64,000 bases of DNA from Mustelus asterias (taxonomy: Eukaryota). Location of the stretch: contig NW_027590123.1 of assembly GCF_964213995.1 (NCBI RefSeq), positions 1,984,001-2,048,000 on the forward strand. Reading direction: 5' to 3'. Shown piece after piece: positions 702-31,169 of this stretch (its first letter is position 1; every line of letters begins with the position of its first letter). The notes beneath the pieces are model-generated. The model was not told the DNA's origin. It made no database searches and saw nothing but the letters and a program-made list of their open reading frames with translations. A program made the translations under genes and the position numbers.

Positions 702-793
702 CTTTTGCTACCAAATAAACCTGTTGGACTTTAACCTGGTGTTGTTAAACTTCTTACTGTGTTTACCCCAGTCCAACGCCGGCATCTCCACAT

Positions 794-2345
794 TATATAA
801 CCTTACCATAACACTCCAACTTTTATACTCAATATTCCGATTTATAAAGGCCAATGTACCAAAGGCACTCTTTATGACCCTATCCACCTGTGACGTCACT
901 TTTGGGGAATTCTGTCCCTGTATTCCCAGATCCCTCTGTTCAACTGCACTCTTCAGAGTCCTACCATTTACCCTGTACGTTCTTCTTTGGTTTGTCCTTC
1001 CAAAGTGCAATATCTCACACTTGTCTGCATTAAATTCCATTTACCATTTTTCAGCCCATTTTTCTAGTTGGTCCAAATCCGTCTGCAAGCTTTGAAAACC
1101 TTCCTCACTGTCCACTACACCTCCAAATTTGCTGATCCAATTTACCACATTATCAGCCAGATCATTGATATAGATGACAAACAACAATGGACCCAACACC
1201 GATCCCTGCGGCACACCACTAGTCACAGGCCTCCACACAGAGAAGCAATCCTCCACAACCACTCTCTAGCTTCTTCCATTGAGCCAGTGTCTAATCCAAT
1301 TTACTACCTCCCCATGTATACGTAGTGACTGAACCTTCCTAACTAACTTCCCATGAGGGACCTTGTCAAAGGCCTTGCTGAAATCCAGGTAAACAACATC
1401 CACTGCCTTCCCTTCATCCACTTTCCTGGTAACCTCCTCGAAGAACTCTAATAGATTGGTTAAACATGACCTACCACGCACAAAACCATGTTGACTCTCC
1501 CTAATAAGTCCCTGTCTATCCAAATATTTGTAGATCCTATCCCTTATCACACCTTCCAATAACTTGCCCACCACCGACGTCAAACTTACTGGCCTATAAT
1601 TTCCCAGATTTCTTTTGGAACCTTTTTTAAACAACAGAACCACATGAGCCACCCTCCAATCATCCGGCACCTCCCCCATGAATACTGACATTTTAAATAT
1701 GTCTGCCAGGGCCCCTGCAAGTTCAACACTAGCTTCCCTCAAGGCCCGTGGGAATACCCTGTCCGGTCCTGGGGATTTATCCACTCTGATTTGCCTCAAG
1801 ACAGCAAGCACCTCCTCCCCTTTAATCTGTAAAGGTTCCATGACCTCCCTACCTGTTTGCCCTATTTCCGTAGACTCCATGCCCGTTTCCTTAGTAAATA
1901 CGGATGCAGAAAACCCATTTAATATCTCCCCCATTTCTTTCGGTTCCATACATAGCCGACCACTCTGATCTTCAAGAGGACCAGTTTTATCCCTCACTAT
2001 CCTTTTGCTCCTAACATACCTATAGAAGCTCTTTGGATTTTCCTTCACTCTGCCTGCCAAAGCAACCTCAAGTCTTCTTTTAGCCCTCCTGATTTCCCTA
2101 TTAAGTAGCTTCTTGCACTTTTTATACTCCTCAAGCATCTAATCTGTTCCTCTGCTGCCTGTACATTTCATACAACTCTCTCTTCCTCTTAATCAGTGTT
2201 ACAATCTCCCTCGAGAACCAAGGTTCCTTATTCCTATTTACTTTGCCTTTAATCCTGACAGGAACATACAAACTCTGCACTCTCAAAATTTCTCGTTTGA
2301 AGGCCTCCCACTTTCCATTTACATCCTTACCAGAGAACAGCCTGT
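794..2345 (-). mobile_element. CR1-clade LINE ORF2 fragment (RT), disrupted
   Basis: ORFs with [32 protein letters not shown]; FADD deleted. Highly similar to 53490-55040. Confidence 0.9.
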
Positions 2346-2359
2346 TGTGTTGAACATGA

Positions 2360-3475
2360 TGCCAAATTGAACTATTCCTTTCTGCCTGCCCTTGGTCCAT
2401 ATTCCTCTATTCCTTGCATATTCATGTGCTTATTTAAAACCCCCTTAAATGCCCCTATCGTATCTGCCTCCACCACCACTCCGAGCAGCGCATTCCAGAC
2501 ACCTACCACTCTCTGTGTAAAAAAACTTACCTCTCACATCTCCTTTGAACTTTGCCCGTCTCACCTTCAGTGCATGCTCCCTGGTGTTAGACATATCAAC
2601 TCTGAGGAAAAGATTCCATGTCTCTCATTTTATAGACTGCTATCAGGTCTCCCCTCACCCTCCGCCGCTATCGAGAAAACAACCCTTGTTTGTCAGTCGC
2701 TCATACCCTCCAATCCAGGCAGCATCCTGGGAAACCTCTTCTGCACCCTCATCAAAGCCTCTGCATCCTTTCTGTAATGTGGCGACCAGAATTGAACGCA
2801 ATATTCTAAGTGCGGCCCAAACAAAGTTTTATAAAGCTGCAACATGGCATGCTGACTCTTGTACTCAATAAAGGCAAGCATGCCATATGCCTTCTTTACC
2901 GACTAAATATTTGTGTGGCTAATTTCAGGAAGCTATGGACTTGAACCCCAAGATCCCTCTGTACATTAACTATATACTTATCTTTAATATTTGATCTCCC
3001 AAAGTGCAGCACCTCACACTTGCCCGGATTAAAATCCATCTGCCATTTCTCCGCTCATATCTGCAGCTGATCTACATCCCACTGTATCCTTTGACAACCT
3101 TCTACACTATCTACAACTCCATCTAGCTTTGTGTCGTCTGCAAGCTTACTAACCCACCCATCCACGTTTTCATCCAAGTCATTGATATATATCACAAATA
3201 GCGCAGGTCCCAGTACAGATCCCTGCAGAACACCACTAGTCATGGACTTCCAGTCAGAAAAACACCCTCCACCACTACTCTCTGACTTCTATGGGCAAGT
3301 CAATTCTGAATCCAAGTGGCCAAGTCACCGTGAATCCCATGCATCTTAATCTTCTGGATGAGCCGACCATGAGGGACCTTGTCGAAAGCCTTCGAAAAAT
3401 CCATGTTCACAACATCCACTGCTCTACCTTCATCGATCACCTTCGTCACCTCCTCGATAAAATCGATCCAGTCAG
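2360..3475 (-). mobile_element. CR1-clade LINE RT/3' fragments
   Basis: [13 protein letters not shown] and HLEYCVQFWSP motifs with deletions and frameshifts. Confidence 0.8.
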
Positions 3476-7029: not shown

Positions 7030-7788
7030 TCATTTGTGAACTCGCTGGTGTCTCTGCAAGTTGCATAACAATGTGAATCCCTTCCCACACATGGAGCAGG
7101 TGAACGGTCTCTCCCCGGTGTGAACTCGCTGGTGTTTCATCACGGTTGCTGAATGTTTGAATCCCTTTCCACACACAGAGCAGTTGAATGGCTTCTTCTC
7201 AGTGTGAACTCGCTGGTGTGTCAGCAGGTTTGATGAATCACTGAATCCTCTCCCACACTCAGAGCAGGTGAATGGTTTTTCCCCTGTGTGAACCCGCTGG
7301 TGTGTCAGCAAGTGGGATGACTGAATGAATCCCTTTCCACAGTCAGAGCAATTGAACGGTCTGTCTCCAGTGTGAACTCGCTGGTGTGTCAGTCGTGTGG
7401 ATGAATTACTGAATACTTTTCCGCAAACAGGGCAGGTGAATGGCTTCTCCCCAGTGTGAACTCGCTGGTGTGCCAGCAAATGGGATGATTGAATGAATCC
7501 CTTCCCACAGTCAGAGCAGGTGAATGGTCTCTCCCCACTGTGAATTCGCTGGTGTCTCCGCAGTGTGGGTAAATCACTAAATCCCTTCCCACACTCAGAA
7601 CAGGCGAACGGCCTCTCCCCGGTGTGAACTCGCTGGTGTGTAAGCAGAAGGGAGAATTGACTAAAACCCTTCCCACACTGAGAGCAGGTGAATGGTCTCT
7701 CCCCGGTGTGACTGCGTCGATGAGTTTCCAGCTTTGATGGGTAATTGAATCCCTTCCCACAGTCCCCACATTTCCACCGTTTCTCCAT
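7030..7788 (-). CDS. C2H2 zinc-finger protein, 9 tandem fingers (XlCGF/gastrula ZNF-like)
   Basis: [14 protein letters not shown] followed by nine CxxC...HxxxH fingers with TGE(R/K)PF linkers. Likely acceptor at 8143/8144, degenerate fingers upstream, AATAAA near 6616-6621. The start codon is inferred. Confidence 0.85.
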
Positions 7789-8784
7789 GGTGCAGGTGCC
7801 CTTGTGACTCTGCTGGTTCCACGATCTGCTGAAGACTCGTCCACACACACAACACAATTAATTTCTCTCCCTGATGTGAATGATGCAATGTTCTTTCAGA
7901 CTGTGTTAAAGCTCTTTCCACAGTCCGTGCACTGGAACACGCTCACTCAGGTGTGTGTGTGTTTCAGTGCTTTTCCAAGCACACTGGTATTTTAGATCTC
8001 CTGAAAAAGACAGAACAGACAAAAATGTATCCTTCTAAATTGAAAGACTGATGATATTCAGGTTCCGATAGAGTGAATTTGTGAGATCTTAGTGTGACAT
8101 TTGGTTTGACATTTCTGCCTGAAAATCTTCACCTTCTGATATCCTGTAAAAGGAGTTTACAAAATTCATCACTGTCAGTACAAGATAGAAATTCAGAACA
8201 GATAATTCTAGTTTCCATGGAACATTCTTTCCTCTCTCATTCCCCAAAAGCTGTAAATCTTCACCCCACACACTGTCCCTCCATTCTCACTCTGCTGTAT
8301 CTAATATTCACCCTCCCAATTCTCCTGAAGGTGCTGATTGAGGCTGATTGACAGATCCATGCTCACTGCTTCCAGAACTAAGAGACTTTTACCAAGAGTC
8401 AGGATGGACTTGTGTGGCTGAAAGGACCCCTTTGCTGTAATGACTCTATAACTGGAAGTATAGAACATAGGTACAGTACAATATTAAAAGAGTATAAATA
8501 AGAATAAATTACTTCATTGCAGAACCATAAATAATTTATCTAATCTGTGACAAAAATAATCATGAGATATATCTCTGTCCTATATTAATTTACTGTCCCC
8601 TTAAATGTCAGCCATCTCCTGGGGAAAGCAGCCCTTTAATTCTGAACATTAGGAAAGAGAACATCCTCTTAACCAGACAAATCAATGTGTCAAGCTGAGG
8701 GAGCAAAGAATGTCAATGTCTTTAAGAGAGAGAGAGAGACCTGGGCCAACCTTTCCAGAGTCTGCACACTTCCTGGATTCACTT

Positions 8785-9370: not shown

Positions 9371-9481
9371 AAAGTCGACTACACCTGGCATTCCCAGGAG
9401 GTCTCCTATTCAAGTACTGACCAGGCCTGAGTCTGCTTAGCTTCCGGGATCAGGCGTTTTCAGACTAGTATGGTTGGAGGC
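9371..9481 (-). pseudogene. 5S rRNA pseudogene or 5S-derived element
   Basis: Matches the reverse complement of vertebrate 5S (ttcccaggaggtctcc..caagtact.accaggcc...tgcttagcttccg) with an internal deletion and many substitutions. Confidence 0.8.
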
Positions 9482-9512
9482 ATTGGCTGATTCTTTTCAC
9501 TTCCTTGAGTCT

Positions 9513-9986
9513 GTCTGGAGCTCAATCTTCATTCAGAAAGAGAGCAGCAGCAGCCGCTTCGCTGGGCAGGAATGAGCAGCTGAACAAGCTCATTGTCCAG
9601 ATTCCGCATTCAGACAATGGGGGGCTCTGATTGGCTGGAGGACCATGGAACTTCCGGTCCTCCAGAGTTTCCATTGGTTAATCCCCGCAGACAGACAATG
9701 AGGGGCGGAGCCCTACGTGGGGGTGGGCGGGACTTTGTCCTCCAGCCGCGCTGAGCTGTTGTCCAATGGGAAAGGCTGGAAGAGCCGGACAGACAATGGT
9801 CAGTGCGCCGGCTCTGTCCCGGGCCCCGCCCCACATCCGCACTCCCCCCAGAATCCGCACATGCGCACCTTTGATTCACGGCCCCTTACCAGCTCTGGCC
9901 AATAGGAAGTGTTGGAGGACCGGAAGGACTCTGGTCCCAGCCATTGAAAGCGCGGGCCTTGTGTGAATGAAGATGGAGTTTCAGAC
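9513..9986. promoter_or_regulatory. Quasi-palindromic, probably bidirectional promoter of the ZNF gene
   Basis: CpG-rich with several CCAAT/ATTGG boxes, two CCGGAAG ETS sites in inverted modules (about 9627-9680 vs 9895-9947), GC boxes and inverted 23-bp terminal motifs. Confidence 0.6.
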
Positions 9987-10112
9987 CTCTTTTTAGGTCA
10001 AACCAAGTAAACAAACTCAAATTAAATCAGGACAAAGTAAAAGGGGCAGCTCCCCAAAAAGGAGGGGGAACAGCCCGAACAGAAATCAAAATGCAAAGGA
10101 AACTTAAAAACA

Positions 10113-13100
10113 TCAAATTAAAATGTGATTATTAGGGTCAATAATGCACCCCAACCCCTGCGGTGCCCAGCGGGCGCGGAAAGCGTCAGCCTCGCCCGTG
10201 GACACCGCATGCTCCCTCTCCAGGGACACCTGGCCGCGAACGTAGCCGCGGTAGAGGGGAAGACAGTCAGGATGGACGGCCCCCTCGATCGCCCGCTGCC
10301 TGGACCGGTAAATGGCGCGTTTCACCAGGCCCAGGAGCAGGTTCACGAGGAGGTCGCCATCCCGACCCTCCCCTCTCCGCACCGGGTGTCCGTAGATCAG
10401 GAGCGTGGGACTGAAGTGCAAACAAAACATCAATAAAAGGTTCTTCAGGAAAACATAAAGGGAGTGCAGCCTAAGACACTCAACATAGACATGGTCCACG
10501 GACTCCACAAGGCCACAGAAAGGGCAGTCTTCGGAGCCCGTGAACCAGTGAATCCTACGGTTGTGCGGAACTGCTGCATGCATCACCCTCCACCCCAGGT
10601 CCCCGACGTAATTGGGGGAGATCCCTCCGTAGAGGGACCTCCAGCGGGGACCTCCGCCGCCCGGCGGCAACAAGGCCCGCCAAGGTGTATCCGGGCGACA
10701 GGCGAGGAGGCAGTAGTGGAAGGTGTGCAGCAGCAGCCCGCACAGGAAACGCCTCCGCGCGGTAGAAAAAGGCACGGAGGGCATTTCCGCGAGGCGGCTC
10801 AGGCTGTGGGGCACCTCACCCAGGGGAGGGGGCTGAGGCTTTGGGCCAATGTGGAATTCCGCCCGAACAGGGGAACGCTCGGGCGGGATCCCACCGCACG
10901 CCTGCGCCGTCTCAAGTTTGCGTGCAGTTTCGGGGCCGAGCACGACCGTCCTAAGGTCTAGGATGGCTTTGGCCGCGCGCCGGACGGACGTCCCCGCGCG
11001 CTCAGCCAGCACGCGGGGACTCATCCAGCCCGCTCCTCTGCCATCGAGCACGTCCCCGATTCTGGTCACCCTGGCGTCCACAGCCCCCCTCTCCGCCAGC
11101 CACCTGAAGTTATACGGCTGGAGGAGCGGATTCCTGAGCAGCGGCTCTCGCACGAGAGCCGCTACTCCTGACGGGGGAGAGCTGCGTCGCGAGGCGACCT
11201 TGTTCCAGACAGTGAGGAGGTCCTGGTAAAAGACGGGCAACTCCTGCAGGGCGGTCGAAGCACGCCCCAGTTCGATATGCAGGAGCTGCACGTCATAATT
11301 GAGGCCGTGCCACTGGCGGAAGAAATACGTCGCCATGGCACACCACTGTGGAGGGGGCTCAACGTAAAGGTACCTCTGCAGGGCCTGGAGGCGGAAGGTC
11401 GCTATCTGAGTGCGGAGGGACACCAGACCTTGTCCGCCCTCCTCAAGCGGGAGATACAGGACCGCAGCAGGGACCCAGTGCAGTCGATTGCCCCAGAAGA
11501 ACCGCACGAGGGTTCTCTGGATATCGGTGACAAAGCCAGGGGGAGGGGTCAAAGGGACCAGCCGGTACCACAGCATGGAGGCGACCAGCTGGTTTATGAC
11601 GCGAGCTCGCGCCCCGTAGGACAGCACTCGGAGCAGTCCTGTCCAGCGACCCAGGCGGGCGGAGACTTTGGCCTCCAGCTCCCGCCAGTTCGCCGGCCAG
11701 GATTCCTCGGCTGGGCAGAGATGGGCCCCCAAGTAGAGGAGGTTGGTCCTGCTCCAGGTGAAAGGCCTGAGCTCCTCCGGAAGGGGGTCCGTCTCCCAAG
11801 GACCGACAAGGAGTCCGGAGCACTTGGCCCAGTTGATCCTGGCGGAGGACGTGGCGGAGTACACCGCCTGGCATTCTCGCATCCTCCGCAGGTCAGCCGG
11901 GTCCGTGAACATGAGGAGCACGTCGTCGGCGTAAGCTGACAGGACCACCCCTACGTCCGGTCCGCGCAGGACCAAACCTGACAACCTCCTCCGCAAGAGG
12001 CGCAGGAATGGCTCCACGCATACGGAATACAGTTGGCCGGACAAGGGGCAGCCCTGCCGTACTCCTCTCCCGAAGCGAAGGGGCGCCGTCAGGGACCCGT
12101 TAACCTTAATCAGACACTCTGCGGCAGAGTACAGTCATCGGATCCGGGCGACAAAATGCGTCCCGAACCCGAATGCCCGCAGAGTCCCGAGTAAATACTC
12201 GTGCTCCACCCTGTCGAACGCCTTCTCCTGATCTAATGACAAGAAGGCGCCCGACAGACCAGCCCTCTGGGTGTGATGGATTAGGTCCCGGACCAGGTGG
12301 AGATTGTCATGTATGCAACGGCCCGGGACCGTGTAGGACTGGTCAGGGTGGATCAAGTGGTCCAGCACGGATCCAAGGCGTGAAGCCATAGCCCTGGCAA
12401 AGATTTTATAATCCGTGCTGAGGAGGGAGACCGGGCGCCAGTTCTTGAGCAGGTGGAGATCCCCCTTCTTGGGCAGCAGGGCAATGACGGCCCTGCGCCA
12501 CGAAAGGGGCATCTCCCCGGTAGCGACGCTCTCCCCCAGGACCCCCGCGTAGTCGCTCCCCAGGACGTCCCAGAACGCCCTGAAGAACTCTACTGTCAGC
12601 CCGTCCAGCCCAGGGGCCTTGCCCCGGCTGAGGCCATTTAGGGCGCCGGTCAGCTCGGCCATGGTGGTAGGGGCCTCGAGCCTGCCGACGCCCTCCGGGC
12701 TGACCTGCGGCAGGTCCTCCCACAGAAGTCTGCGGGCATCCTCGCTGGACGGATCCGGAGAGAAGAGCGAGGTGTAATACTCGCGGGCAATGGCCCGGAT
12801 GCCCTCCGGATCCGAGACGGGGGAACCGTCGTCGGCCAGCAGCGTAAGGAGCTGCTGACGGTTAGCCCGCCCTCTTTCCAGCGAGTAGAAGAAGGGGGAG
12901 CCGCGGTCCAGGTCCACCTGGAACTGGAGCCGCGACCTCACGTACGCGCCGCGAGACCTGGCAAGCTGCAGGTCCCGCAGCGCGTCCTTCTTCTCCCTGT
13001 ACTCCGAACGCAGGGCCGGGTCCGCGTCAGGCCGACTGAGACGTGCCTCCAGGTCGAGCACCTCCTTCTCCAACTCCTCGAGCCTGGATTTCCGCCTCTT

Positions 13101-14006
13101 TGTCGACCCCCTCGCGTACCCCTGACAGAAGGTACGGACGTGAGTCTTGCCCACATCCCACCAGAGCCTCAAGGAGGGGAAGCCTCCCCGCTTCCTTCTC
13201 CAGCCGGCCCAGAATCGACGGAACGAGTCCAGGAAGCGCTCGTCCTCCAGCAGCGTGTTGTTAAAGTGCCAGTACGCGGACCCCCGCCGGATGCGAGACG
13301 GCGCAAAGTCCGCCCACACCAGGCTGTGGTCCGTGCTCGACACCGGCCGCATGGAGACCGAGGACACGCCGGACACGTGCGCCTTCGAAATGTAAAGGCG
13401 GTCGAGCCTGGACGCTCCGACTCCAGGCCTCACGAAAGTGAAGGCGCTGGAGCCAGGATGGAGATGTCTCCAGACGTCCACCAAGTCGTGGGACCCGATC
13501 AGGTCCCGCAACTTCACCACCGCCGGAGTGCGCAGCCAGGGGCCGGTGCGGTCCCGTGCCTCGAGGATGCAGTTGAAATCTCCCCCGAGGATAATGCATT
13601 CGCCCCCCGCGATGGTGTCGATGTGAGCGGACACTTTCTCGTAGAAAGTCGTTTGCTGCGGTCCGGCGGTCGGGGCGTAGACATTCAGCAAGTGAATGAC
13701 CACGCCCCCCTCACGGACCGTCAAGTGCAGCAACCGGCCTGGCACCGGCTCCTTGACCCCCAAGATCTCCGGCTTATAACGCGGGGCCAACAAGATAGCC
13801 ACCCCGCAAGAAGCGAGCGTGAGGTGGCTCATGTAGACCCCCCCTCGCCACTCCAGGAGCCATTGGGCTTCGTCTCCCGGAACGGTGTGGGTTTCCTGCA
13901 GGAAACACACCGCATACTTCCCGTCACGGAGGACCGAGAAGTTCTGGAACCTGCGGTGTGGCCCACTGCTGCCGTTGATGTTGAGGCTGGCTATGGTCAC
14001 CTTCAT
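10113..14006 (-). pseudogene. Tx1 copy 1 ORF2 with a single in-frame nonsense codon
   Basis: Collinear with the copy 2 ORF2 (1297 aa); TGA at 12135-12137 where copy 2 has TTA (Leu). Confidence 0.9.
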
Positions 14007-14034
14007 GTCAGCAGCTTTGTGCCACCGTCACCAC

Positions 14035-16137
14035 TTAACTAGGTGTGTGGGGGGGCGCTGGCGCAATTCTCACCAGTCCACCCCCCACCTTTTCGAGCCT
14101 GTGGAGGAACCGCAGTACCCAGCGCCGCTCTATTTTCTCCAGGCCCGCGGAGGCATGCGAGCATGCCTTCACGGACCGGACGAGCCGCGCCAGGTCCGGC
14201 CAGCGGCCGAGGGCTAGCCGGATTATGTCGGAGCGACCGGAATGGTTACGGATAAAGACCCTGAGGTCCTTGGAGGGGATGAGGGACGACTCGGTGGGGG
14301 GCACGAGGGAGTCCCCCGCCTCGCTCTGGGCAGACTCTGAAAGTGTCCCCGTGCCCTCCACCGAGCCGCTGACCTCCTCAGGGCGGTCGCCCCTCGACTC
14401 CGAGTCCCCCGCCGCAGGACGTACGGCGGGCGGCACGGAGCCACCAACTAGCCCTAGCCCCTCCCCGATCCCACCCCCAGGATCGGTGGAGGAGGGGTTC
14501 CCCCCGGGCTCACCTTTCCCGGATTGCGGGCCCCCGTGCGACGGCGGCCCAGCCGCCCCCCCCACCCCAGACGCTTGGACACCCCCCAGGTCCGGTGTAT
14601 CCTTCGGACTGAGGTTGGGGATGTCCAGCGTCCAAGGTCGGGACGGAGAGGACGAGTGGATCGTCTCTTCGCCGCCGCCGCACGAGGACATGAACATTGG
14701 AGTGTCGCCCCAGTCCCCCGACAGACTGAAGAAGAACTCCGGGTTGTAACCGGCCGGGTGGAACGGAACCGTGGGGGCCCCGCTGCCACCCGGCCCCGGA
14801 GACTCCTCGCCGGGGGACTGAGGCAACACATGCTTGGATTTACAGGGTGCCTTGCCCCCTTTTTTCTGGGGACAAGGCACAAAGACAGGTGGGGGCACGG
14901 CAGGAGATGACTCACAAGGGGGGAGGGGCACGCAGACCTCGAACTCTACGGTGCCCGAGGGGCCCCGCCTCTTTTTGTTAACCTGCCCTCGGGCAGGCGA
15001 GGCCCCTCGCCCTCCGCCCCTCTTCGCCTTGCCGCGCCCCCCCTGCTCTCCCGTCACTTCCCCCCGAGGTGGCGGCGTCGCCAGTTTTGCCGGCTCGGGG
15101 TCGCTTACCCCCCCATGCTCGGGCCCATGATCCCGGGCGCCGGACCCAGCACTAGGCCCCGGAGAGCCCACGGGCCCGGCAGATGGTGGTGGTGGTGGTG
15201 GTGGGGGGGGGGCGCAGGTGGAGACTGAGGCGGTCCCCGAGCCGGCTGCCGGGGTGGTTGGGGTGTTTTCCCTGGGGGCCGGGGTTCCGGTACCCCCCTT
15301 CTTTTTTGTAGGTCCCTTATGGGCCTTTTGGCCGCGCGGGGGCTCCGCTCCCCCCCCGCCGGCAGCTGAGGTGGCAGCTGCTGCCGGCGTGGCCTCCCCT
15401 CGCGGGGGGGCAGATGGTACTCGCTTGGGGGGAGAGGGGGCTGCGGTGCCAGCTGCGGCCGCCTTGGGTTGGTGGTCGGCGGCCTTGGAGACGGGGCAGT
15501 TTTTTCTCACGTGCCCCGCCTCCTTACAGGCATGGCACCGCACACCGTCCGCGGACCAAAAGACCCGGTACGTGGTCCCCTCGTGGGGGACATTGAAACC
15601 TCCCTCCAGTTCCTCCTCCCGGGCCAGGCGGACAAAAACCTGGCGCCGGAAGGAGTATATGTGGCGGAGGGAGGGGTCCCGAAGGCCGAGCGGGATCGGC
15701 TGCACCCCGGACCTGACCTCCCCCAGTAGATGGAGGTGGGGGAGGAGGAGCTCACTCGGTAGGAAGGGCGGGACGTTCGATATTACTATCTTGTGGGCGG
15801 TGGCCTCCAATGGGTCCACCGCCAGGAACGTCCCGCCCACCGTGAGCCCCTTTTCCAGGGCGAGGCGAACCGCCCGCTCGGCCTTCAGGAAGAATACGGC
15901 CCGGCCGTACATCTTTGAGGCCGCGACAATGGCTGAGGGGCCGACAACCCCAGCCATTGCCTTAACGCAGGCCTCGATAGACATGTCGGGGTGGGCGTAG
16001 CACTTCACCCCGAGCTGCCGCGTGATTAAAGAGAATGGCGGCAGGGCCTTGGGAGCGGCGGGGGCTCTGGCAGCCGCCACGCCCGCATAGGTGGGCCGAG
16101 AAGGCCCTGCCACCGGCGACGCTGGTGATGTCGCCAT
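14035..16137 (-). CDS. Tx1 ORF1 protein (700 aa; RRM-like region, CCHC knuckle, Pro/Gly-rich tail)
   Basis: ISNVPPFLPSE..L, SFRRQVF and CHACKEAGHVRKNC are typical of Tx1 ORF1. Confidence 0.88.
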   Translation of the reverse strand: MATSPASPVAGPSRPTYAGVAAARAPAAPKALPPFSLITRQLGVKCYAHPDMSIEACVKAMAGVVGPSAIVAASKMYGRAVFFLKAERAVRLALEKGLTVGGTFLAVDPLEATAHKIVISNVPPFLPSELLLPHLHLLGEVRSGVQPIPLGLRDPSLRHIYSFRRQVFVRLAREEELEGGFNVPHEGTTYRVFWSADGVRCHACKEAGHVRKNCPVSKAADHQPKAAAAGTAAPSPPKRVPSAPPRGEATPAAAATSAAGGGGAEPPRGQKAHKGPTKKKGGTGTPAPRENTPTTPAAGSGTASVSTCAPPPPPPPPPSAGPVGSPGPSAGSGARDHGPEHGGVSDPEPAKLATPPPRGEVTGEQGGRGKAKRGGGRGASPARGQVNKKRRGPSGTVEFEVCVPLPPCESSPAVPPPVFVPCPQKKGGKAPCKSKHVLPQSPGEESPGPGGSGAPTVPFHPAGYNPEFFFSLSGDWGDTPMFMSSCGGGEETIHSSSPSRPWTLDIPNLSPKDTPDLGGVQASGVGGAAGPPSHGGPQSGKGEPGGNPSSTDPGGGIGEGLGLVGGSVPPAVRPAAGDSESRGDRPEEVSGSVEGTGTLSESAQSEAGDSLVPPTESSLIPSKDLRVFIRNHSGRSDIIRLALGRWPDLARLVRSVKACSHASAGLEKIERRWVLRFLHRLEKVGGGLVRIAPAPPHTPS

Positions 16138-16533
16138 GGTATCAAGGGAGTGCTACACCCACCCCGAGACTGCCCAGATGCACGGCAGGGCGTATATGTG
16201 GAGGGAAAAATAAGGGAGGGTGGGGTCGGTGGGTAGGGGTGTAGGTGTTCTCTCCCCGGAGTGAGAGAGGGAGAGAGGAGGTCGGAGCAGTGGGAGGGAG
16301 ATGAGGCACAAGGCCGGTGCCCCAGTCAGGAGGGAAAAAGGGGAGGGTGCACCAATCTTGGGGGCAGCAGCAGTGGGTAGGGGAATTAGGAAAAAAAGGT
16401 CTTCACCCCCCCACTGCAGATGGAGAAGAGACAGTCCAAACGCCTTCGCCCCCCCCCCCCTTCTCCTCCAGTCACTCCCTGTCCTCTCTTCCTCCCTCCC
16501 CCCGGGGAGAGCGCACCCTCCAGAGGCCGAATG

Positions 16534-17050
16534 GCAGGCAAGCAGGCAGTCAGGCAGTCCAGACGGCAGGTAGGCCAAACGGCAAGCAGGCAGGCAGGCA
16601 GTCCAGACGGCAGGCAGCCCAGACGGCAGGCAGTCCAGACGGCAGGCAGGCAGGTAGGTAAGCAGGCCAGACGGCAGGCAGGCAGGTAAGCAGGCCAGAC
16701 GGCAGGCAGGCAGGTAAGCAGGCCAGACGGCAGGCAGGCAGGTAAGCAGGCCAGACGGCAGGCAGGCAGGTAAGCAGGCCAGACGGCAGGCAGGCAGGTA
16801 AGCAGGCCAGACGGCAGGCAGGCAGGTAAGCAGGCCAGACGACAGGCAGGCAGGTAAGCAGGCCAGACGGCAGGCAGGCAGGTAAGCAGGCCAGACGGCA
16901 GGCAGGCAGGTAAGCAGGCCAGACGGCAGGCAGGCAGGTAAGCAGGCCAGACGGCAGGCAGGCAGGTAAGCAGGCCAGACGGCAGGCAGGCAGGTAAGCA
17001 GGCCAGACGGCAGGCAGGCAGGCAACAGGCAGGCCGGGCAAGGCAGGCAG
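16534..17050. repeat. 28-bp tandem repeat in the Tx1 5' UTR (acggcaggcaggcaggtaagcaggccag), 13 regular units plus degenerate flanks
   Basis: GGTAAG recurs every 28 bp from 16657 to 16993. Confidence 0.95.
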
Positions 17051-17462
17051 CAGCTCACCTCCCTCCTTCCTCCCCGCAGGGAGCGAAAAACAAACAAACC
17101 CAACAAAACAAAAACAAAAACCGGGCGTCTCCGTGAGCAAAAACGAGAAAAAAAATAAAGGTACTCACAAAAAAAGAAAAGAAAACAAACCCACAGTTTC
17201 CGCCCGGCTCCGACCCGGGGCCCCCCGCTACTCGGGCGAACGTGAACTCACCCCACCCCGGAAACAAAGTGCAGGCGCTGCCCCAGAGGAGGCACGTTTC
17301 AGGCCGTCTGAAGCTCAATCTTCATTCAGAGAGACCTCTTTTTAGGTCAGACCAAGTAAACAAACTCAAATTAAATCAGGACAAAGTAAAAGGGGCAGCT
17401 CCCCAAAAAGGAGGGGGGAACAGCCCGAACAGAAATCAAAATGCAAAGGAAACTTAAAAACA

Positions 17463-20400
17463 TCAAATTAAAATGTGATTATTAGGGTCAATAATGCACC
17501 CCAACCCCTGCGGTGCCCAGCAGGCGCGGAAAGCGTCAACCGCGCCCGTGGACACCGCATGCTCCCTCTCCAGGGACACCTGGCCGCGAACGTAGCCGCG
17601 GTAGAGGGGAAGACAGTCAGGATGGACGGCCCCCTCGATCGCCCGCTGCCTGGACCGGTAAATGGCGCGTTTCGCCAGGCCCAGGAGCAGGTTCACGAGG
17701 AGGTCGCCATCCCGACCCTCCCCTCTCCGCACCGGGTGTCCGTAGATCAGGAGCGTGGGACTGAAGTGTAAACAAAACATCAATAAAAGGTTCTTCAGGA
17801 AAACATAAAGGGAGTGCAGCCTAAGACACTCAACATAGACATGGTCCACGGACTCCACAAGGCCACAGAAAGGGCAGTCTTCGGAGCCCGTGAACCAGTG
17901 AATCCTACGGTTGTGCGGAACTGCTGCATGCATCACCCTCCACCCCAGGTCCCCGACGTAATTGGGGGAGATCCCTCCGTAGAGGGACCTCCAGCGGGGA
18001 CCTCCGCCGCCCGGCGGCAACAAGGCCCGCCAAGGTGTATCCGGGCGACAGGCGAGGAGGCGGTAGTGGAGGGTGTGCAGCAGCAGCCCGCACAGGAAAC
18101 GCCTCCGCGCGGTAGAAAAAGGCACGGAGGGCATTTCCGCGAGGCGGCTCAGGCTGTGGGGCACCTCACCCAGGGGAGGGGGCTGAGGCTTTGGGCCAAT
18201 GTGGAATTCCGCCCGAACAGGGGAACGCTCGGGCGGGATCCCACCGCACGCCTGCGCCATCTCAAGTTTGCGTGCAGTTTCGGGGCCGAGCACGACCGTC
18301 CTAAGGTCTAGGATGGCTTTGGCCGCCCGCCGGACGGACGTCCCCGCGCGCTCAGCCAGCACGCGGGGACTCATCCAGCCCGCTCCTCCGCCATCGAGCA
18401 CGTCCCCGATTCTGGTCACCCCGGCGTCCACAGCCCCCCTCTCCGCCAGCCACCTGAAGTTATACGGCTGGAGGAGCGGATTCCTGAGCAGCGGCTCTCG
18501 CACGAGAGCCGCTACTCCTGACGGGGGAGAGCTGCGTCGCGAGGCGACCTTGTTCCAGACAGTGAGGAGGTCCTGGTAAAAGACGGGCAACTCCTGCAGG
18601 GTGGTCGAAGCACGCCCCAGTTCGATATGCAGGAGCTGCACGTCATAATTGAGGCCGTGCCACTGGCGGAAGAAATACGTCGCCATGGCACACCACTGTG
18701 GAGGGGGCTCAACGTAAAGGTACCTCTGCAGGACCTGGAGGCGGAAGGTCGCTATCTGAGTGCGGAGGCACACCAGACCTTGTCCGCCCTCCTCAAGCGG
18801 GAGATACAGGACCGCAGCAGGGACCCAGTGCAGTCGATTGCCCCAGAAGAACCGCACGAGGGTTCTCTGGATATCGGTGACAAAGCCAGGGGGAGGGGTC
18901 AAAGGGACCAGCCGGTACCACAGCATGGAGGCGACCAGCTGGTTTATGACGCGAGCTCGCGCCCCGTAGGACAGCACTCGGAGCAGTCCTGTCCAGCGAC
19001 TCAGGCGGGCGGAGACTTTGGCCTCCAGCTCCCGCCAGTTCGCCGGCCAGGATTCCTCGGCTGGGCAGAGATGGGCCCCCAAGTAGAGGAGGTCGGTCCT
19101 GCTCCAGGTGAAAGGCCTGAGCTCCTCCGGGAGGGGGTCCGTCTCCCAAGGACCGACAAGGAGTCCGGAGCACTTGGCCCAGTTGATCCTGGCGGAGGAC
19201 GCGGCGGAGTACATCGCCTGGCATTCTCGCATCCTCCGCAGGTCAGCTGGGTCCGTGAACATGAGGAGCACGTCGTCGGCGTAAGCTGACAGGACCACCC
19301 CTACGTCCAGTCCGCGCAGGACCAAACCTGACAACCTCCTCCGCAAGAGGCGCAGGAATGGCTCCACGCATACGGAATACAGTTGGCCGGACAAGGGGCA
19401 GCCCTGCCGTACTCCTCTCCCGAAGCGAAGGGGCGCCGTCAGGGACCCGTTAACCTTAATCAGACACTCTGCGGCAGAGTAGAGTAATCGGATCCGGGCG
19501 ACAAAATGCGTCCCGAACCCGAATGCCCGCAGAGTCCCGAGTAAATACTCGTGCTCCACCCTGTCGAACGCCTTCTCCTGATCTAATGACAAGAAGGCGC
19601 CCGACAGACCAGCCCTCTGGGTGTGATGGATTAGGTCCCGGACCAGGTGGAGATTGTCATGTATACAGCGGCCCGGGACCGTGTAGGACTGGTCAGGGTG
19701 GATCAAGTGGTCCAGCACGGATCCAAGGCGTGAAGCCATAGCCCTGGCAAAGATTTTATAATCCGTGCTGAGGAGGGAGACCGGGCGCCAGTTCTTGAGC
19801 AGGTGGAGATCCCCCTTCTTGGGCAGCAGGGCAATGACGGCCCTGCGCCACGAAAGGGGCATCTCCCCGGTAGCGACGCTCTCCCCCAGGACCCCCGCGT
19901 AGTCGCTCCCCAGGATGTCCCAGAACGCCCTGAAGAACTCTACTGTCAGCCCGTCCAGCCCAGGGGCCTTGCCCCGGCTGAGGCCATTTAGGGCGCCGGT
20001 CAGCTCGGCCATGGTGGTAGGGGCCTCGAGCCTGCCGACGCCCTCCGGGCTGACCTGCGGCAGGTCCTCCCACAGAAGTCTGCGGGCATCCTCGCTGGAC
20101 GGATCCGGAGAGAAGAGCGAGGTGTAATACTCCCGGGCAATGGCCCGGATGCCCTCCGGATCCGAGACGGGGGAACCGTCGTCGGCCAGCAGCGTAAGGA
20201 GCTGCTGACGGTTAGCCCGCCCTCTTTCCAGCGAGTAGAAGAAGGGGGAGCCGCGGTCCAGGTCCACCTGGAACTGGAGCCGCGACCTCACGTACGCGCC
20301 GCGAGACCTGGCAAGCTGCAGGTCCCGCAGCGCGTCCTTCTTCTCCCTGTACTCCGAACGCAGGGCCGGGTCCGCGTCAGGCCGACTGAGACGTGCCTCC

Positions 20401-21356
20401 AGGTCGAGCACCTCCTTCTCCAACTCCTCGAGCCTGGATTTCCGCCTCTTTGTCGACCCCCTCGCGTACCCCTGACAGAAGGTACGGACGTGAGTCTTGC
20501 CCACATCCCACCAGAGCCTCAAGGAGGGGAAGCCTCCCCGCTTCCTTCTCCAGCCGGCCCAGAATCGACGGAACGAGTCCAGGAAGCGCTCGTCCTCCAG
20601 CAGCGTGTTGTTAAAGTGCCAGTACGCGGACCCCCGCCGGATGCGAGACGGCGCAAAGTCCGCCCACACCAGGCTGTGGTCCGTGCTCGACACCGGCCGC
20701 ATGGAGACCGAGGACACGCCGGACACGTGCGCCTTCGAAATGTAAAGGCGGTCGAGCCTGGACGCTCCGACTCCAGGCCTCACGAAAGTGAAGGCGCTGG
20801 AGCCAGGATGGAGATGTCTCCAGACGTCCACCAAGTCGTGGGACCCGATCAGGTCCCGCAACTTCACCACCGCCGGAGTGCGCAGCCAGGGGCCGGTGCG
20901 GTCCCGTGCCTCGAGGATGCAGTTGAAATCTCCCCCGAGGATAATGCATTCGCCCCCCGCGATGGTGTCGATGTGAGCGGACACTTTCTCGTAGAAAGTC
21001 GTTTGCTGCGGTCCAGCGGTCGGGGCGTAGACATTCAGCAAGTGAATGACCACGCCCCCCTCACGGACCGTCAAGTGCAGCAACCGGCCTGGCACCGGCT
21101 CCTTGACCCCCAAGATCTCCGGCTTATAACGCGGGGCCAACAAGATAGCCACCCCGCAAGAAGCGAGCGTGAGGTGGCTCATGTAGACCCCCCCTCGCCA
21201 CTCCAGGAGCCATTGGGCTTCGTCTCCCGGAACGGTGTGGGTTTCCTGCAGGAAACACACCGCATACTTCCCGTCACGGAGGACCGAGAAGTTCTGGAAC
21301 CTGCGGTGTGGCCCACTGCTGCCGTTGATGTTGAGGCTGGCTATGGTCACCTTCAT
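17463..21356 (-). CDS. Tx1 ORF2 protein (1297 aa): APE endonuclease, reverse transcriptase, C-terminal Zn motif; intact
   Basis: SLNING, LQETH, GGDFN, SRLD, TDH (APE); NWRPVSLL, LDQEKAFDRV, GVRQGCPLS, YADD (RT); CPFC...H...C. Confidence 0.95.
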   Translation of the reverse strand: MKVTIASLNINGSSGPHRRFQNFSVLRDGKYAVCFLQETHTVPGDEAQWLLEWRGGVYMSHLTLASCGVAILLAPRYKPEILGVKEPVPGRLLHLTVREGGVVIHLLNVYAPTAGPQQTTFYEKVSAHIDTIAGGECIILGGDFNCILEARDRTGPWLRTPAVVKLRDLIGSHDLVDVWRHLHPGSSAFTFVRPGVGASRLDRLYISKAHVSGVSSVSMRPVSSTDHSLVWADFAPSRIRRGSAYWHFNNTLLEDERFLDSFRRFWAGWRRKRGGFPSLRLWWDVGKTHVRTFCQGYARGSTKRRKSRLEELEKEVLDLEARLSRPDADPALRSEYREKKDALRDLQLARSRGAYVRSRLQFQVDLDRGSPFFYSLERGRANRQQLLTLLADDGSPVSDPEGIRAIAREYYTSLFSPDPSSEDARRLLWEDLPQVSPEGVGRLEAPTTMAELTGALNGLSRGKAPGLDGLTVEFFRAFWDILGSDYAGVLGESVATGEMPLSWRRAVIALLPKKGDLHLLKNWRPVSLLSTDYKIFARAMASRLGSVLDHLIHPDQSYTVPGRCIHDNLHLVRDLIHHTQRAGLSGAFLSLDQEKAFDRVEHEYLLGTLRAFGFGTHFVARIRLLYSAAECLIKVNGSLTAPLRFGRGVRQGCPLSGQLYSVCVEPFLRLLRRRLSGLVLRGLDVGVVLSAYADDVLLMFTDPADLRRMRECQAMYSAASSARINWAKCSGLLVGPWETDPLPEELRPFTWSRTDLLYLGAHLCPAEESWPANWRELEAKVSARLSRWTGLLRVLSYGARARVINQLVASMLWYRLVPLTPPPGFVTDIQRTLVRFFWGNRLHWVPAAVLYLPLEEGGQGLVCLRTQIATFRLQVLQRYLYVEPPPQWCAMATYFFRQWHGLNYDVQLLHIELGRASTTLQELPVFYQDLLTVWNKVASRRSSPPSGVAALVREPLLRNPLLQPYNFRWLAERGAVDAGVTRIGDVLDGGGAGWMSPRVLAERAGTSVRRAAKAILDLRTVVLGPETARKLEMAQACGGIPPERSPVRAEFHIGPKPQPPPLGEVPHSLSRLAEMPSVPFSTARRRFLCGLLLHTLHYRLLACRPDTPWRALLPPGGGGPRWRSLYGGISPNYVGDLGWRVMHAAVPHNRRIHWFTGSEDCPFCGLVESVDHVYVECLRLHSLYVFLKNLLLMFCLHFSPTLLIYGHPVRRGEGRDGDLLVNLLLGLAKRAIYRSRQRAIEGAVHPDCLPLYRGYVRGQVSLEREHAVSTGAVDAFRACWAPQGLGCIIDPNNHILI

Positions 21357-21384
21357 GTCAGCAGCTTTGTGCCACCGTCACCAC

Positions 21385-23416
21385 TTAACTAGGTGTGTGG
21401 GGGGGCGCTGGCGCAATTCTCACCAGTCCACCCCCCACCTTTTCGAGCCTGTGGAGGAACCGCAGTACCCAGCGCCGCTCTATTTTCTCCAGGCCCGCGG
21501 AGGCATGCGAGCATGCCTTCACGGACCGGACGAGCTGCGCCAGGTCCGGCCAGTGGCCGAGGGCTAGCCGGATTATGTCGGAGCGACCGGAATGGTTACG
21601 GATAAAGACCCTGAGGTCCTTGGAGGGGATGAGGGACGACTCGGTGGGGGGCACGAGGGAGTCCCCCGCCTCGCTCTGGGCAGACTCTGAAAGTGTCCCC
21701 GTGCCCTCCACCGAGCCGCTGACCTCCTCAGGGCGGTCGCCCCTCGACTCCGAGTCCCCCGCCGCAGGACGTACGGCGGGCGGCACGGAGCCACCAACTA
21801 GCCCTAGCCCCTCCCCGATCCCACCCCCAGGATCGGTGGAGGAGGGGCTCCCCCCGGGCTCACCTTTCCCGGATTGCGGGCCCCCGTGCGACGGCGGCCC
21901 AGCCCCCCCCCCCGCCCCAGACGCTTGGACACCCCCCAGGTCCGGTGTATCCTTCGGACTGAGGTTGGGGATGTCCAGCGTCCAAGGTCGGGACGGAGAG
22001 GACGAGTGGATCGTCTCTTCGCCGCCGCCGCACGAGGACATGAACATTGGAGTGTCGCCCCAGTCCCCCGACAGACTGAAGAAGAACTCCGGGTTGTAAC
22101 CGGCCGGGTGGAACGGAACCGTGGGGGTCCCGCTGCCACCCGGCCCCGGAGACCCCTCGCCGGGGGACTGAGGCAACACATGCTTGGATTTACAGGGTGC
22201 CTTGCCCCCTTTTTTCTGGGGACAAGGCACAAAGACAGGTGGGGGCACGGCAGGAGATGACTCACAAGGGGGGAGGGGCACGCAGACCTCGAACTCTACG
22301 GTGCCCGAGGGGCCCCGCCTCTTTTTGTTAACCTGCCCTCGGGCAGGCGAGGCCCCTCGCCCTCCGCCCCTCTTCGCCTTGCCGCGCCCCCCCTGCTCTC
22401 CCGTCACCTCCCCCCGAGGTGGCGGCGTCGCCAGTTTTGCCGGCTCGGGGTCGCTTACCCCCCCATGCTCGGGCCCATGATCCCGGGCGCCGGACCCAGC
22501 ACTAGGCCCCGGAGAGCCCACGGGCCCGGCAGATGGTGGTGGTGGTGGTGGTGGTGGTGGTGGGGGGGGGGCGCAGGTGGAGACTGAGGTGGTCCCCGAG
22601 CCGGCTGCCGGGGTGGTTGGGGTGTTTTCCCTGGGGGCCGGGGTTCCGGTACCCCCCTTCTTTTTTGTGGGTCCCTTCTGGGCCTTTTGGCCGCGCGGGG
22701 GCTCCGCTCCCCCCCCGCCGGCAGCTGAGGTGGCAGCTGCTGCCGGCGTGGCCTCCCCTCGCGGGGGGGCAAATGGTACTCGCTTGGGGGGAGAGGGGGC
22801 TGCGGTGCCAGCTGCGGCCGCCTTGGGTTGGTGGTCGGCGGCCTTGGAGACGGGGCAGTATTTCCGCACGTGCCCCGCCTCCTTACAGGCATGGCACCGC
22901 ACACCGTCCGCGGACCAAAAGACCCGGTACGTGGTCCCCTCGTGGGGGACATTGAAAACCTCCCTCCAGTTCCTCCTCCCGGGCCAGGCGGACAAAAACC
23001 TGGCGCCGGAAGGAGTATATGTGGCGGAGGGAGGGGTCCCGAAGGCCAAGCGGGATCGGCTGCACCCCGGACCTGACCTCCCCCAGTATATGGAGGTGGG
23101 GGAGGAGGAGCTCACTCGGTAGGAAGGGCGGGACGTTCGATAATACGATCTTATGGGCGGTGGCCTCCAAAGGGTCCACCGCCAGGAACGTCCCGCCCAC
23201 CGTGAGCCCCTTTTCCAGGGCGAGGCGAACCGCCCGCTTGGCCTTCAGGAAAAATACGGCCCGGCCGTACATCTTTGAGGCCGCGACAATGGCTGAGGGG
23301 CCGACAACCCCAGCCATTGCCTTGACGCAGGCCTCGATAGACATGTCGGGGTGGGTGTAGCACTTCACCCCGAGCTGCCGCGTGATTAAGGAAAATGGCG
23401 GCAGGGCCTTGGGAGC
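21385..23416 (-). pseudogene. Tx1 copy 2 ORF1, lacking its start and frameshifted
   Basis: AAAA at 22955-22958 vs AAA in copy 1; the N-terminal codons are missing. Confidence 0.85.
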
Positions 23417-25002
23417 TGTGGTACCGGCTGGTCCCTTTGACCCCTCCCCCTGGCTTTGTCACCGATATCCAGAGAACCCTCGTGCGGTTCTTCTGGGGCA
23501 ATCGACTGCACTGGGTCCCTGCTGCGGTCCTGTATCTCCCGCTTGAGGAGGGCGGACAAGGTCTGGTGTGCCTCCGCACTCAGATAGCGACCTTCCGCCT
23601 CCAGGCCCTGCAGAGGTACCTTTACGTTGAGCCCCCTCCACAGTGGTGTGCCATGGGACGTATTTCTTCCGCCAGTGGCACGGCCTCAATTATGACGTGC
23701 AGCTCCTGCATATCGAACTGGGGCGTGCTTCGACCGCCCTGCAGGAGTTGCCCGTCTTTTACTAGGACCTCCTCACTGTCTGGAACAAGGTCGCCTCGCG
23801 ACGCAGCTCTCCCCCGTCAGGAGTAGCGGCTCTCGTGCGAGAGCCGCTGCTCAGGAATCCGCTCCTCCAGCCGTATAACTTCAGGTGGCTGGCGGAGAGG
23901 GGGGCTGTGGACGCCGGGGTGACCAGAATCGGGGATGTGCTCGATGGCGGAGGAGCGGGCTGGATGAGACCCCGCGTGCTGGCTGAGCGCGCGGGGACGT
24001 CCGTCCGGCGCGCGGCCAAAGCCATCCTAGACCTTAGGACGGTCGTGCTCGGCCCCGAAACTGCACGCAAACTTGAGACGGCGCAGGCGTGCGGTGGGAT
24101 CCCGCCCGAGCGTTCCCCTGTTCGGGCGGAATTCCACATTGGCCCAAAGCCTCAGCCCCCTCCCCTGGGTGAGGTGCCCCACAGCCTGAGCCGCCTCGCG
24201 GAAATGCCCTCCGTGCCTTTTTCTACCGCGCGGAGGCGTTTCCTGTGCGGGCTGCTGCTGCACACCTTCCACTACCGCCTCCTCGCCTGTCGCCCGGATA
24301 CACCTTGGCGGGCCTTGTTGCCGCCGGGCGGCGGAGGTCCCCGCTGGAGGTCCCTCTACGGAGGGATCTCCCCCAATTACGTCGGGGACCTGGGGTGGAG
24401 GGTGTTGCATGCAGCAGTTCCGCACAACCGTAGGATTCACTGGTTCACGGGCTCCGAAGACTGCCCTTTCTGCGGCCTTGTGGAGTCCGTGGACCATGTC
24501 TATGTTGAGTGTCTTAGGCTGCACTCCCTTTATGTTTTCCTGAAGAACCTTTTATTGATGTTTTGTTTGCACTTCAGTCCCACGCTCCTGATCTACGGAC
24601 ACCCGGTGCGGAGAGGGGAGGGTCGGGATGGCGACCTCCTCGTGAACCTGCTCCTGGGCCTGGCGAAACGCGCCATTTACCGGTCCAAGCAGCGGGCGAT
24701 CGAGGGGGCCGTCCATCCTGACTGTCTTCCCCTCTACCGCGGCTACGTTCGCGGCCAGGTGTCCCTGGAGAGGGAGCATGCGGTGTCCACGGGCGCGGTT
24801 GATGCTTTCCGCGCCCGCTGGGCACCCCAGGGGTTGGGGTGCATTATTGACCCAAATAATCACATTTTAATTTGATGTTTTTAAGTTTCCTTTGTATTTT
24901 GATTTCTGTTCGGGCTGTTCCCCCTCCTCTTTGGGGAGCTGCCCCTTTTACTTTGTCCTGATTTAATCTGAGTTTGTTTATTTGGTTTGACCTAAAAAGA
25001 GG
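23415..25002 (+). mobile_element. Tx1 copy 3, inverted 3' fragment (1.6 kb)
   Basis: ORF2 C-terminus (LWYRLVPL...NNHILI) with a 1-bp deletion near 23656 and a stop near 23763; same 3' UTR ending cctaaaaagagg. Confidence 0.92.
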
Positions 25003-30490: not shown

Positions 30491-31169
30491 CTGCAGGGAA
30501 GAGAGAGACAATTAACTCATATTTCAGACTGAGAACAGGAGCAGTAATCTGGCAGGTTCCTGGAGAACAGCTACAGGATTTTGTTTTACAGAGTCCAGCC
30601 TCAGAAAAACATGGATTCACCTGTTCTGCTGAGACTGGGTTCACAGTAAGAAAGCATCGCACTGAGGTATCAAGAAACTAAATTTACCAACAGAGCAGAT
30701 CTCCAATTCCCTGCCTTCTCTTTATTTGTATTTGGGAGACACAATGGTGCCAATGGGTTTGGACGAAAAGTTCCTGGTCTGGGTCATTCTGCTGTGACTG
30801 TGCTGCAGACTGTGCATCTGAAGATATTGCATAAGTTGATTTGGAATTGGTTGTAAATCACAAAACTGGAAATTATATATTTTATTTTACTGAGGCAGGA
30901 CCCTGTAGATATTAAGGCAGGAATAGTGGAAGTGGCCGGTGAAGGTGTGGTGGGAGTGGGGGGAGTGAGGAGAGGGGGTTGGTAGTGGGGAGGGGGGAGA
31001 TTGGGAAATAGAGAGCAACCACCAGGCAAGAGTAGGGAAAATGTCTGCTGGGAAGATAGAGAAATTTTCCAATTGCATTAGCACATATGCAACATGAAGT
31101 TTGCACATTATAAAATTATTAACTGGGTCTCATGGACAAGTGCAATCAACAGAGTGAAATTTAACTCAC

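Follow-up and report, generated by a model that had tools for sequence, protein, structure and literature searches.

Organisation of the locus

The DNA examined here is a stretch of 64,000 nucleotides from Mustelus asterias (hereafter the window; GCF_964213995.1, contig NW_027590123.1, positions 1,984,001 to 2,048,000, from an assembly of 3.68 Gb), in which copies of a Tx1-clade long interspersed nuclear element (LINE) adjoin the predicted promoter of a C2H2 zinc-finger (ZNF) gene; the relation between this element and such promoters is our subject. Along the window, the minus-strand ZNF gene is followed by its own leader, a promoter-like stretch, a right leader and element copies 1, 2 and 3. 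The coding exon of the gene (7030..7857, minus strand, a stop-to-stop open reading frame (ORF) of 275 aa) matched Pfam zf-C2H2 in nine stretches (E 1e-61), which confirms that the left copy of the leader motif lies on the ZNF-facing side of the promoter. This left leader (9513..9545, minus strand) consists of a pyrimidine tract plus TGAATGAAGATTGAGCTCCAGAC; it was identified by its motif match and is identical to the 3' flank of L014 and L024. The left ZNF gene is predicted to start with it, and as a sense target it is empty. The multicopy stretch at 9546..9963 has CCAAT and GC-box-like words and is a predicted bidirectional promoter, as judged from its sequence and from paralogues with C2H2 exons on both sides (789 first-look candidates, 40 of which were scored); the paralogous promoters are likewise predicted to drive genes on both sides. 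Comparison with paralogues identified a truncated right host leader at 9964..9985 (plus strand), the target core of which is on the antisense strand (the empty paralogue reads GACTCTCTCTGAAACTCC).

Copy 1 (9986..17305, minus strand), delimited from the sequence and by self-comparison, is a young full-length element with the 3' end AAAAAGAGG and without poly(A). Its ORF2 (10113..14006, minus strand) encodes an apurinic-type endonuclease (APE) and a reverse transcriptase (RT), and an in-frame stop at about 12135 splits it into two in-frame ORFs, 12135-14027 and 10113-12134. ORF1 (14035..16137, minus strand) is open over about 700 aa and has no Pfam match, with a single CCHC-like knuckle seen by eye in the translation. 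The 5' untranslated region (UTR) contains a 28-bp tandem repeat (approximately 16530..17050, minus strand), which sequence comparison showed to vary in length from copy to copy. The original prediction let element-specific sequence begin directly after TCAGAC at the 5' end; instead, about 40 nt homologous to a first exon come first (17266..17305, minus strand, by-eye alignment with the exon-1 ends of the older copies L385, L387 and L396 and with the host variant L071), and then a degenerate tRNA-Val-derived segment (17195..17265, minus strand), in which 54 of 73 columns are identical to the tRNA-Val copy of the older L389. The leader motif at 17306..17334 (minus strand) is both the 5' junction of copy 1 and the sense target of the 3' end of copy 2, one of 63 such tandem junctions genome-wide. 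Copy 2 (17335..23416, minus strand) is 5'-truncated and 98.9% identical to copy 1, and its intact ORF2 (21356-17463, 1297 aa) matches Pfam RVT_1 and Exo_endo_phos. Copy 3 (23415..25002, plus strand) is a 3' fragment of 1.6 kb in inverted orientation, and its flank is of the GCAA type; the same junction and flank are present again at C91:1099191 (C-numbers denote contigs).

The leader motif was found at 9513-9535 (-), 9964-9986 (+) and 17306-17328 (-), as originally reported. With up to three mismatches allowed, the three matches compare with 0.02 expected, and none of 100 shuffled windows reached three, which excludes chance.

The element is a non-long-terminal-repeat retrotransposon of the Tx1 clade, Tx1L group. 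Its ORF2 matched Pfam PF03372 at residues 6-227 and PF00078 at 512-760, as well as L1 endonuclease structures (E 1e-18), and is 48% identical to Tx1L of Xenopus laevis (P14381, YTX2_XENLA) over the whole length and 60% in the RT; a protein search also gave a partial match, 69%, to a stingray protein. In an RT tree of 17 rows, midpoint-rooted and built with no non-Tx1 outgroup, it formed a clade with Tx1L and with turtle and sturgeon sequences at 100/100. BAC82609 and BAC82603, which may or may not belong to Kibi, fell outside this clade. A turtle gene model, CAM2110706.1, fuses a Tx1 RT with KRAB and C2H2 domains; the relative in the turtle, too, may sit in ZNF genes.

Insertion at the leaders of zinc-finger genes

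In the young lineage, insertion is in sense and at the start of the leader motif, the terminal AAAAAGAGG of the element being followed directly by TCTCTCTGAATG, and the motif is the predicted leader of multicopy C2H2 genes. Among the 30 best matches to the 3' end of copy 1, 23 continue in sense as GG followed by TC(TC)nTGAATGAAGATTGAG, and the other seven, the window included, likewise start with TC. The whole genome contains 1401 exact 3' ends, with TC next in 296 and VCA next in 1113. A sense leader follows 132 of the 296 TC-flanked ends (102 by a stricter pattern), and an antisense leader follows only two. At least 15 of the 132 come from a single 132-bp array, and about 50 are tandem junctions; with both removed, about 67 host-continued leader sites remain (counted by hand). 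Relative to the mark of more than 20% flanks of one type given in PMC4494074, the TC class lies above it with 132/296, and also with about 67/296 without tandem junctions and array, while the older VCA class (32/1113 on the exact count, a lower bound) and the pooled 3' ends lie below it. The genome-wide 3' flanks thus support the proposal of a Tx1 element specific for a ZNF promoter-leader motif: a sequence-specific flank is found family-wide, but the target is the motif start entered in sense, not the base after CAGAC entered in antisense.

The exact motif occurs 332 times in the genome, mainly on C71, C87-C91, C23 and C12 among the 100 occurrences listed. The anticipated association with C2H2 genes was also seen: a sense C2H2 exon lies within 5.4 kb of 8 of 12 sampled leaders and an antisense one at none of the 12, and no C2H2 exon was found at any of 60 off-target loci (3 kb each, a control not length-matched to the leaders). 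The 12-mer TCTCTCTGAATG has 1540 genomic copies, 74 of them on C1 and 290 in leader context, and all 61 element ends on this 12-mer are on C71 or higher-numbered contigs. Since the 12-mer sites are widespread yet the ends are confined to contigs from C71 upward, local sequence alone fails to explain the choice of site, and the added specificity must come from upstream bases, promoter chromatin or local hopping.

The target opens with TC repeats and the position of the junction shifts by TC units, as would be seen if leaders were hit merely for these repeats by a microsatellite element resembling Kibi, which targets (TC)n (PMC4494074). Such an element is, however, a most improbable explanation: six TC units follow only 3 of the 296 TC-flanked ends, the RT belongs with that of Xenopus Tx1L (100/100), and within the same exon the sites of sister lineages are of the CAA type.

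Three sets of 3' ends deserve separate mention. A cluster of 12 TC-flanked ends is located at C8:15-40 Mb, where three of five sampled sites have an observed/expected CpG ratio of 0.8-0.9 and no leader. L250 (C89:2431500-2434100) consists of about 20 head-to-tail units of 132 bp, each made of the last 104 nt of the element and the leader motif. L027, L020 and L258 (C71:14.94 Mb; C91:1.94 Mb) are arrays of a 255-bp 3' fragment, in which the junction TCGCGGCC falls within the end of the element's own ORF2.

A leader carried by the element

The leader motif was present at all 30 sampled 5' ends, 12 of them behind a promoter and 18 behind another copy, in agreement with the prediction that the leader is carried at the 5' end of the element. 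Genome-wide, there are 113 full-length 5' ends, of which 63 are tandem and 45 are distinct promoter-anchored ones, placed after the GCTGCT run of the promoter (hand count), so that about 108 of 113 lie behind a ZNF promoter or another copy (the search patterns differ slightly). This census agrees with the suggestion that source copies sit in sense behind ZNF promoters. The variant GAGAATT is found at 20 of 25 promoter-anchored 5' ends versus 1 of 46 host-continued leaders; moreover, among 20 fetched regions there are eight solo copies with both junctions at the leader, and seven of these read GAGAATT at the 5' side and GAAGATT at the 3' side. The 5' motif belongs to the element and is not a target duplication. 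The 29-bp motif was therefore rejected as a target-site duplication (TSD): its 5' and 3' variants differ, and real TSDs are shorter.

Of 179 distinct 3' ends, 22 that are not in tandem have an apparent TSD of 10-16 bp, typically about 14 bp (eight at exactly 14 bp). A fixed 3' end, variable 5' truncation and a TSD together make up the signature of target-primed reverse transcription. The base after GAGG is target-derived in 21 of the 22 TSD-bearing copies, with one exception, and there is no sign of the templated RNA 3' GUCU tail that had been proposed. Around copy 1 itself, the reported lack of a TSD was confirmed.

The insertions at leaders are independent. Clustered at 98%, the flanks of the 24 host on-target junctions yield 22 groups, and 21 clusters were obtained for the 25 promoter-anchored 5' ends; the median identity is 90.7% between flanks and 99.0% between elements, and because the flanks (91%) are thus older than the element (99%), the insertions must have occurred separately. 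Empty and filled paralogues coexist, and 5' truncation points differ among copies inserted at the same base. These observations largely refute an origin of the many copies from a handful of chance insertions that spread as ZNF genes underwent segmental duplication. Duplication of filled loci does occur, as in L014/L218 and L124/L125, in a 1.6-kb and a 0.7-kb group and in the 25.8-kb duplicate of the window itself, but with flanks about ten times more diverged than elements it has next to no chance of accounting for the family as a whole.

Older lineages and the layered 5' untranslated region

Older lineages of the element hit the same exon about 50 nt downstream, with 32 ends at CCAACATCTG, immediately in front of GTGAG, the predicted donor of exon 1; a hand count groups these 32 ends into about 12 distinct structures. 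The flank of copy 3, GCAATGG, which had been regarded as unrelated to any target, fits the RCAA/CCAA preference of these lineages. Of 20 longer old copies, seven have a promoter and sequence of exon 1 right at their 5' end; six end at the exon-end site, two overlapping loci end in tandem, and five end elsewhere. A general promoter preference of older off-target copies was not observed: of 60 sites, the near sequence was CpG-rich in 1 and the far sequence in 3.

The old 5' UTRs have a near-intact tRNA-Val behind the captured exon (the L389 copy scores 60.6 bits on RF00005), while the corresponding window segment (17195-17265) has no Rfam match and is decayed in the young lineage. The 5' UTR is thus layered from captured exon-1 and tRNA-Val pieces. 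At 52 of 53 young 5' ends, a GTRAGY word, a potential splice donor carried by the element, lies within 300 nt. Two fusions were found at or near target sites. In L207 (minus strand, about 1550-1750), a tRNA that looks Arg-like by eye stands between exon-end duplications, and in L250 (961-1033 and flanks) there is a copy of a pre-tRNA-Val; in both, the 3' trailer is fused to the last bases of the element. They resemble U6-L1 chimeras and suggest that tRNA sequence entered by template switching.

With a copy of the leader at its 5' end, the element probably has its RNA made from the host promoter. The main argument, taken from sequence comparison, is that sequence beginning at the predicted host start was captured repeatedly. 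Alternatively, the targeting would be real but transcription would depend on the element's own promoter, either the tRNA-Val-derived segment or an internal RNA polymerase II (Pol II) promoter, with the leader copy serving as a homology handle and self-target. The near-intact tRNA-Val right behind the captured exon in older copies would suit this arrangement, as would the deep tandem copies at least 7 kb from any host promoter, and the start of the RNA in the host leader is itself a deduction. On the other hand, the young lineage retains the tRNA only in decayed form (54/73 identical, no Rfam match), the 5' UTR is full of T runs, which would stop RNA polymerase III, and the captured 5' end starts at the predicted host start, as read-through from the host promoter predicts. 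We therefore regard an own promoter as unlikely and host-promoter transcription as the better account.

The endonuclease domains of the young copies are 97-100% identical and nested within older ones. The young lineage has C67/T113/A114 and the sister lineage mostly S67/G113/G114, at sites that adjoin the catalytic tyrosine; T113 aligns with L1 N118, which we take to be the position that PMC1919474 links to R1Bm Tyr-98. A residue switch is nevertheless no more than a weak lead to the basis of the target shift: T113 is also present in several older CAA-type copies and Tx1L has T there, L385 has T113/A114 and L397 has C67, the hairpin loop is unchanged, and only one switch event is involved.

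Duplicated exon-end sequences flank 15 nt left over from the 3' end of the element in the right-hand exon 1 of L063, L064, L065, L067 and other promoters; being common to many paralogues, this remnant is an old insertion amplified with the gene family. Judging from the 5' junctions of L382 and L389, the predicted splice donor can be part of the exon-end TSD; the 5' copy of L382 lacks it. A TSD with the donor would place the older element in intron 1, sparing the host mRNA. At the off-target copy L399, about 46 bp of CCAAT-rich sequence appear to be duplicated.

The rearranged locus of the window

The window locus is atypical and rearranged, and its apparent inverted repeat does not represent the two ends of a single insertion. 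Window positions 17252-43043 form a 98.3% inverted duplicate of C91:1106920-1081175, which includes the 5' side of copy 1, copies 2 and 3 and an 18-kb flank (98.1% for the flank alone), while the motif at 17306-17334 is also the 3' target of the tandem copy 2; consequently, the two inverted motifs cannot be read as the ends of one simple insertion. The sibling array on C91 ends on-target in sense (L022).

The original prediction placed both junctions at the same base after CAGAC. In the two closest empty paralogues, L062 and L063, which match over positions 1-206 of 207, this place reads CAGAG followed by AGAGTCAAAC, continuing into exon 1, although some more distant empty paralogues do read CAGAC. 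The search for empty paralogues, suggested as a check, was hence successful, but the closest two disagree with the proposed target base. As the element ends in AAAAAGAGG, C9986 is most likely the terminal G of copy 1. The antisense strand of L062 and L063 already holds a normal core, TCTCTCTGAA, and the 3' end of copy 1 can for this reason be understood as a rare event in which a look-alike site was hit. The window locus lacks the right-hand exon and gene of the paralogues.

From these observations, a course of events may be outlined: the 3' end of copy 1 would have been primed on the look-alike core in the antisense strand of the right-hand leader, and its 5' side would have been joined to another leader, with loss of the right-hand gene. 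The joining may have taken place at insertion, by capture of the cDNA end by a second, convergent leader, or through later recombination between copies. In L220 and L228, a promoter 5' end is likewise joined to an unrelated TC site, and a paralogue on C71 has convergent genes about 18 kb apart. Twin priming is not favoured for copies 2 and 3: both 3' ends are complete, the flank classes differ, and the junction is common to the C91 duplicate.

The mechanism inferred earlier from this locus assumed a target after CAGAC, antisense daughters and an RNA leader that displaces the priming strand. The window indeed looks that way, and a second antisense-leader case exists at C88:440665. As a rule for the family, however, this model is refuted by 2 antisense versus 132 sense ends, which make antisense insertion an exception; in addition, the empty antisense strand already holds TCTCTCTGAA, and the 5' side in the window is common to the sibling locus whose array ends on-target in sense. 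In a typical sense insertion, the RNA leader matches the top strand instead of being complementary to it, so strand displacement is not applicable there. We consider the model very unlikely.

Discussion

Taken together, our results make it probable that a young Tx1L-clade LINE homes in sense to the leader of C2H2 ZNF genes, carries a copy of this leader and uses the host promoter. In such a mechanism, the APE endonuclease would nick the bottom strand at TC and prime reverse transcription, with wider context or promoter chromatin adding specificity. The cDNA end may then anneal to the host leader, with the outcome that full-length copies finish almost only at leaders, and the exon-1 and tRNA-Val pieces of the 5' UTR would be the product of repeated read-through from the promoter. 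From R2 it is familiar that upstream homology serves to join the 5' end.

Several observations weigh against this account. A search of sequence runs returned 22 rows, made up of four runs of unknown kind from a single study and of runs guessed to be RNA, with small shares. The RNA evidence consists of contigs, of guessed or unknown kind, in which starts and strand are invisible: X20 joins the leader to the element, X1 continues the leader as host sequence, and X1-X3, the three runs guessed to be RNA, contain no element-specific bases. There is no sign of spliced retrocopies, since none of 13 internal deletions is of the GT..AG type. No C2H2 exon was in range of 4 of the 12 sampled leaders, and about half of the TC-type ends are off the leader, 12 sampled ones sharing little beyond TC. 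The 1113 VCA-flanked ends are mostly dispersed, with the exact exon-end flank in 32 and, on C1, in 1 of 30, and the 60 older off-target sites are not CpG-island-like (CpG-rich near 1/60, far 3/60). Furthermore, the locus samples are skewed to young copies, since DNA searches yield only the best-scoring ones, and what looks like a duplicate on C91 may represent an uncollapsed haplotype or an assembly artefact.

The typical system is real and site-specific, a Tx1 member that works like R2 or Keno, though one that resides in a protein-coding family. Known site-specific LINEs occupy RNA genes, telomeres, microsatellites or other transposons, and Mutsu and Dewa have their targets among 5S or tRNA arrays. 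Insertion into U2, 5S or tRNA arrays, as by Keno, Mutsu and Dewa, was not observed here: the junction is in the leader, and a 5S or tRNA copy lies downstream of the site in some leaders only. Tx1L of Xenopus laevis is similar in having two ORFs, APE and RT and a sequence-specific insertion (PMC4494074, PMC1950540), but it targets the Tx1D DNA transposon, whereas the Mustelus element targets the fronts of protein-coding ZNF genes and carries their leader. Keno (U2 snRNA), Kibi and Koshi (microsatellites) and Tx1-Mar and Tx1-9_AMi (DNA transposons) are likewise Tx1-clade elements with multicopy targets. The Tx1-family targets named in PMC4494074 are RNA genes, satellites, microsatellites and transposons, in contrast to the first exons of a protein-coding family. 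No description of a target in first exons of ZNF genes was found in the literature searched, coverage of which leaves outside Repbase reports, most subscription journals and the supplements of PMC4494074.

R2 inserts in sense at a fixed position of the transcribed multicopy 28S gene and is co-transcribed with the host unit (PMC12203849, PMC4494074). The fixed sense insertion in a multicopy gene is shared, and co-transcription of the Mustelus element would fit its genomic context. R2 differs in having one ORF, a restriction-like endonuclease, Pol I transcription and an HDV-like ribozyme, against an APE and a predicted Pol II promoter here; no ribozyme was matched by Rfam in window 9400-17500. 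Host exons gained by transcription from upstream promoters are described for the 5'-transducing SVA subfamily with the MAST2 promoter and for the 5' extensions of SINEU-2 (PMC4494074). Those are single captures without homing to the promoter, while in the Mustelus element capture and targeting coincide and recur.

With a lineage that settles at the starts of hundreds of protein-coding ZNF genes, the safe-haven idea would come to cover Pol II gene families as well. A natural pair of endonucleases that are about 98% alike yet differ in the junctions they prefer allows the question of how an APE chooses its target to be put to a direct test. That about 67 host leaders are filled, compared with a few hundred occurrences of the motif, and that some junctions join different loci suggest that the element shapes the turnover of the ZNF clusters. 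In other vertebrates, ZNF proteins repress transposons; if this is true of the present ZNF proteins, a direct conflict between host and element may be envisaged. More tentatively, and with rather less than even confidence, one may picture a vertebrate LINE lineage that lives in the promoters of a protein-coding family: it would home to active ZNF starts beyond local sequence, by a promoter-bound factor or open chromatin, become full-length only via leader homology, have walked its cut site upstream in exon 1, and rearrange or silence a gene class that polices transposons.

Other features of the window

One leader subfamily has a degenerate 5S rRNA copy about 25 nt downstream, replacing the usual exon end (L198, L202, L203, L210). 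In the window, this copy stands just behind the left leader at 9400..9481 (minus strand; Rfam RF00001, 40.9 bits, the match being clipped by the edge of the searched stretch), and it extends below 9400. The duplicated flank contains a stop-to-stop frame of 362 aa (29589-30677, minus strand). Inverted LINE-like fragments, 71-97% alike and unrelated to the Tx1 copies, are located at 704-3264, 46132-47083 and 50740-55276.

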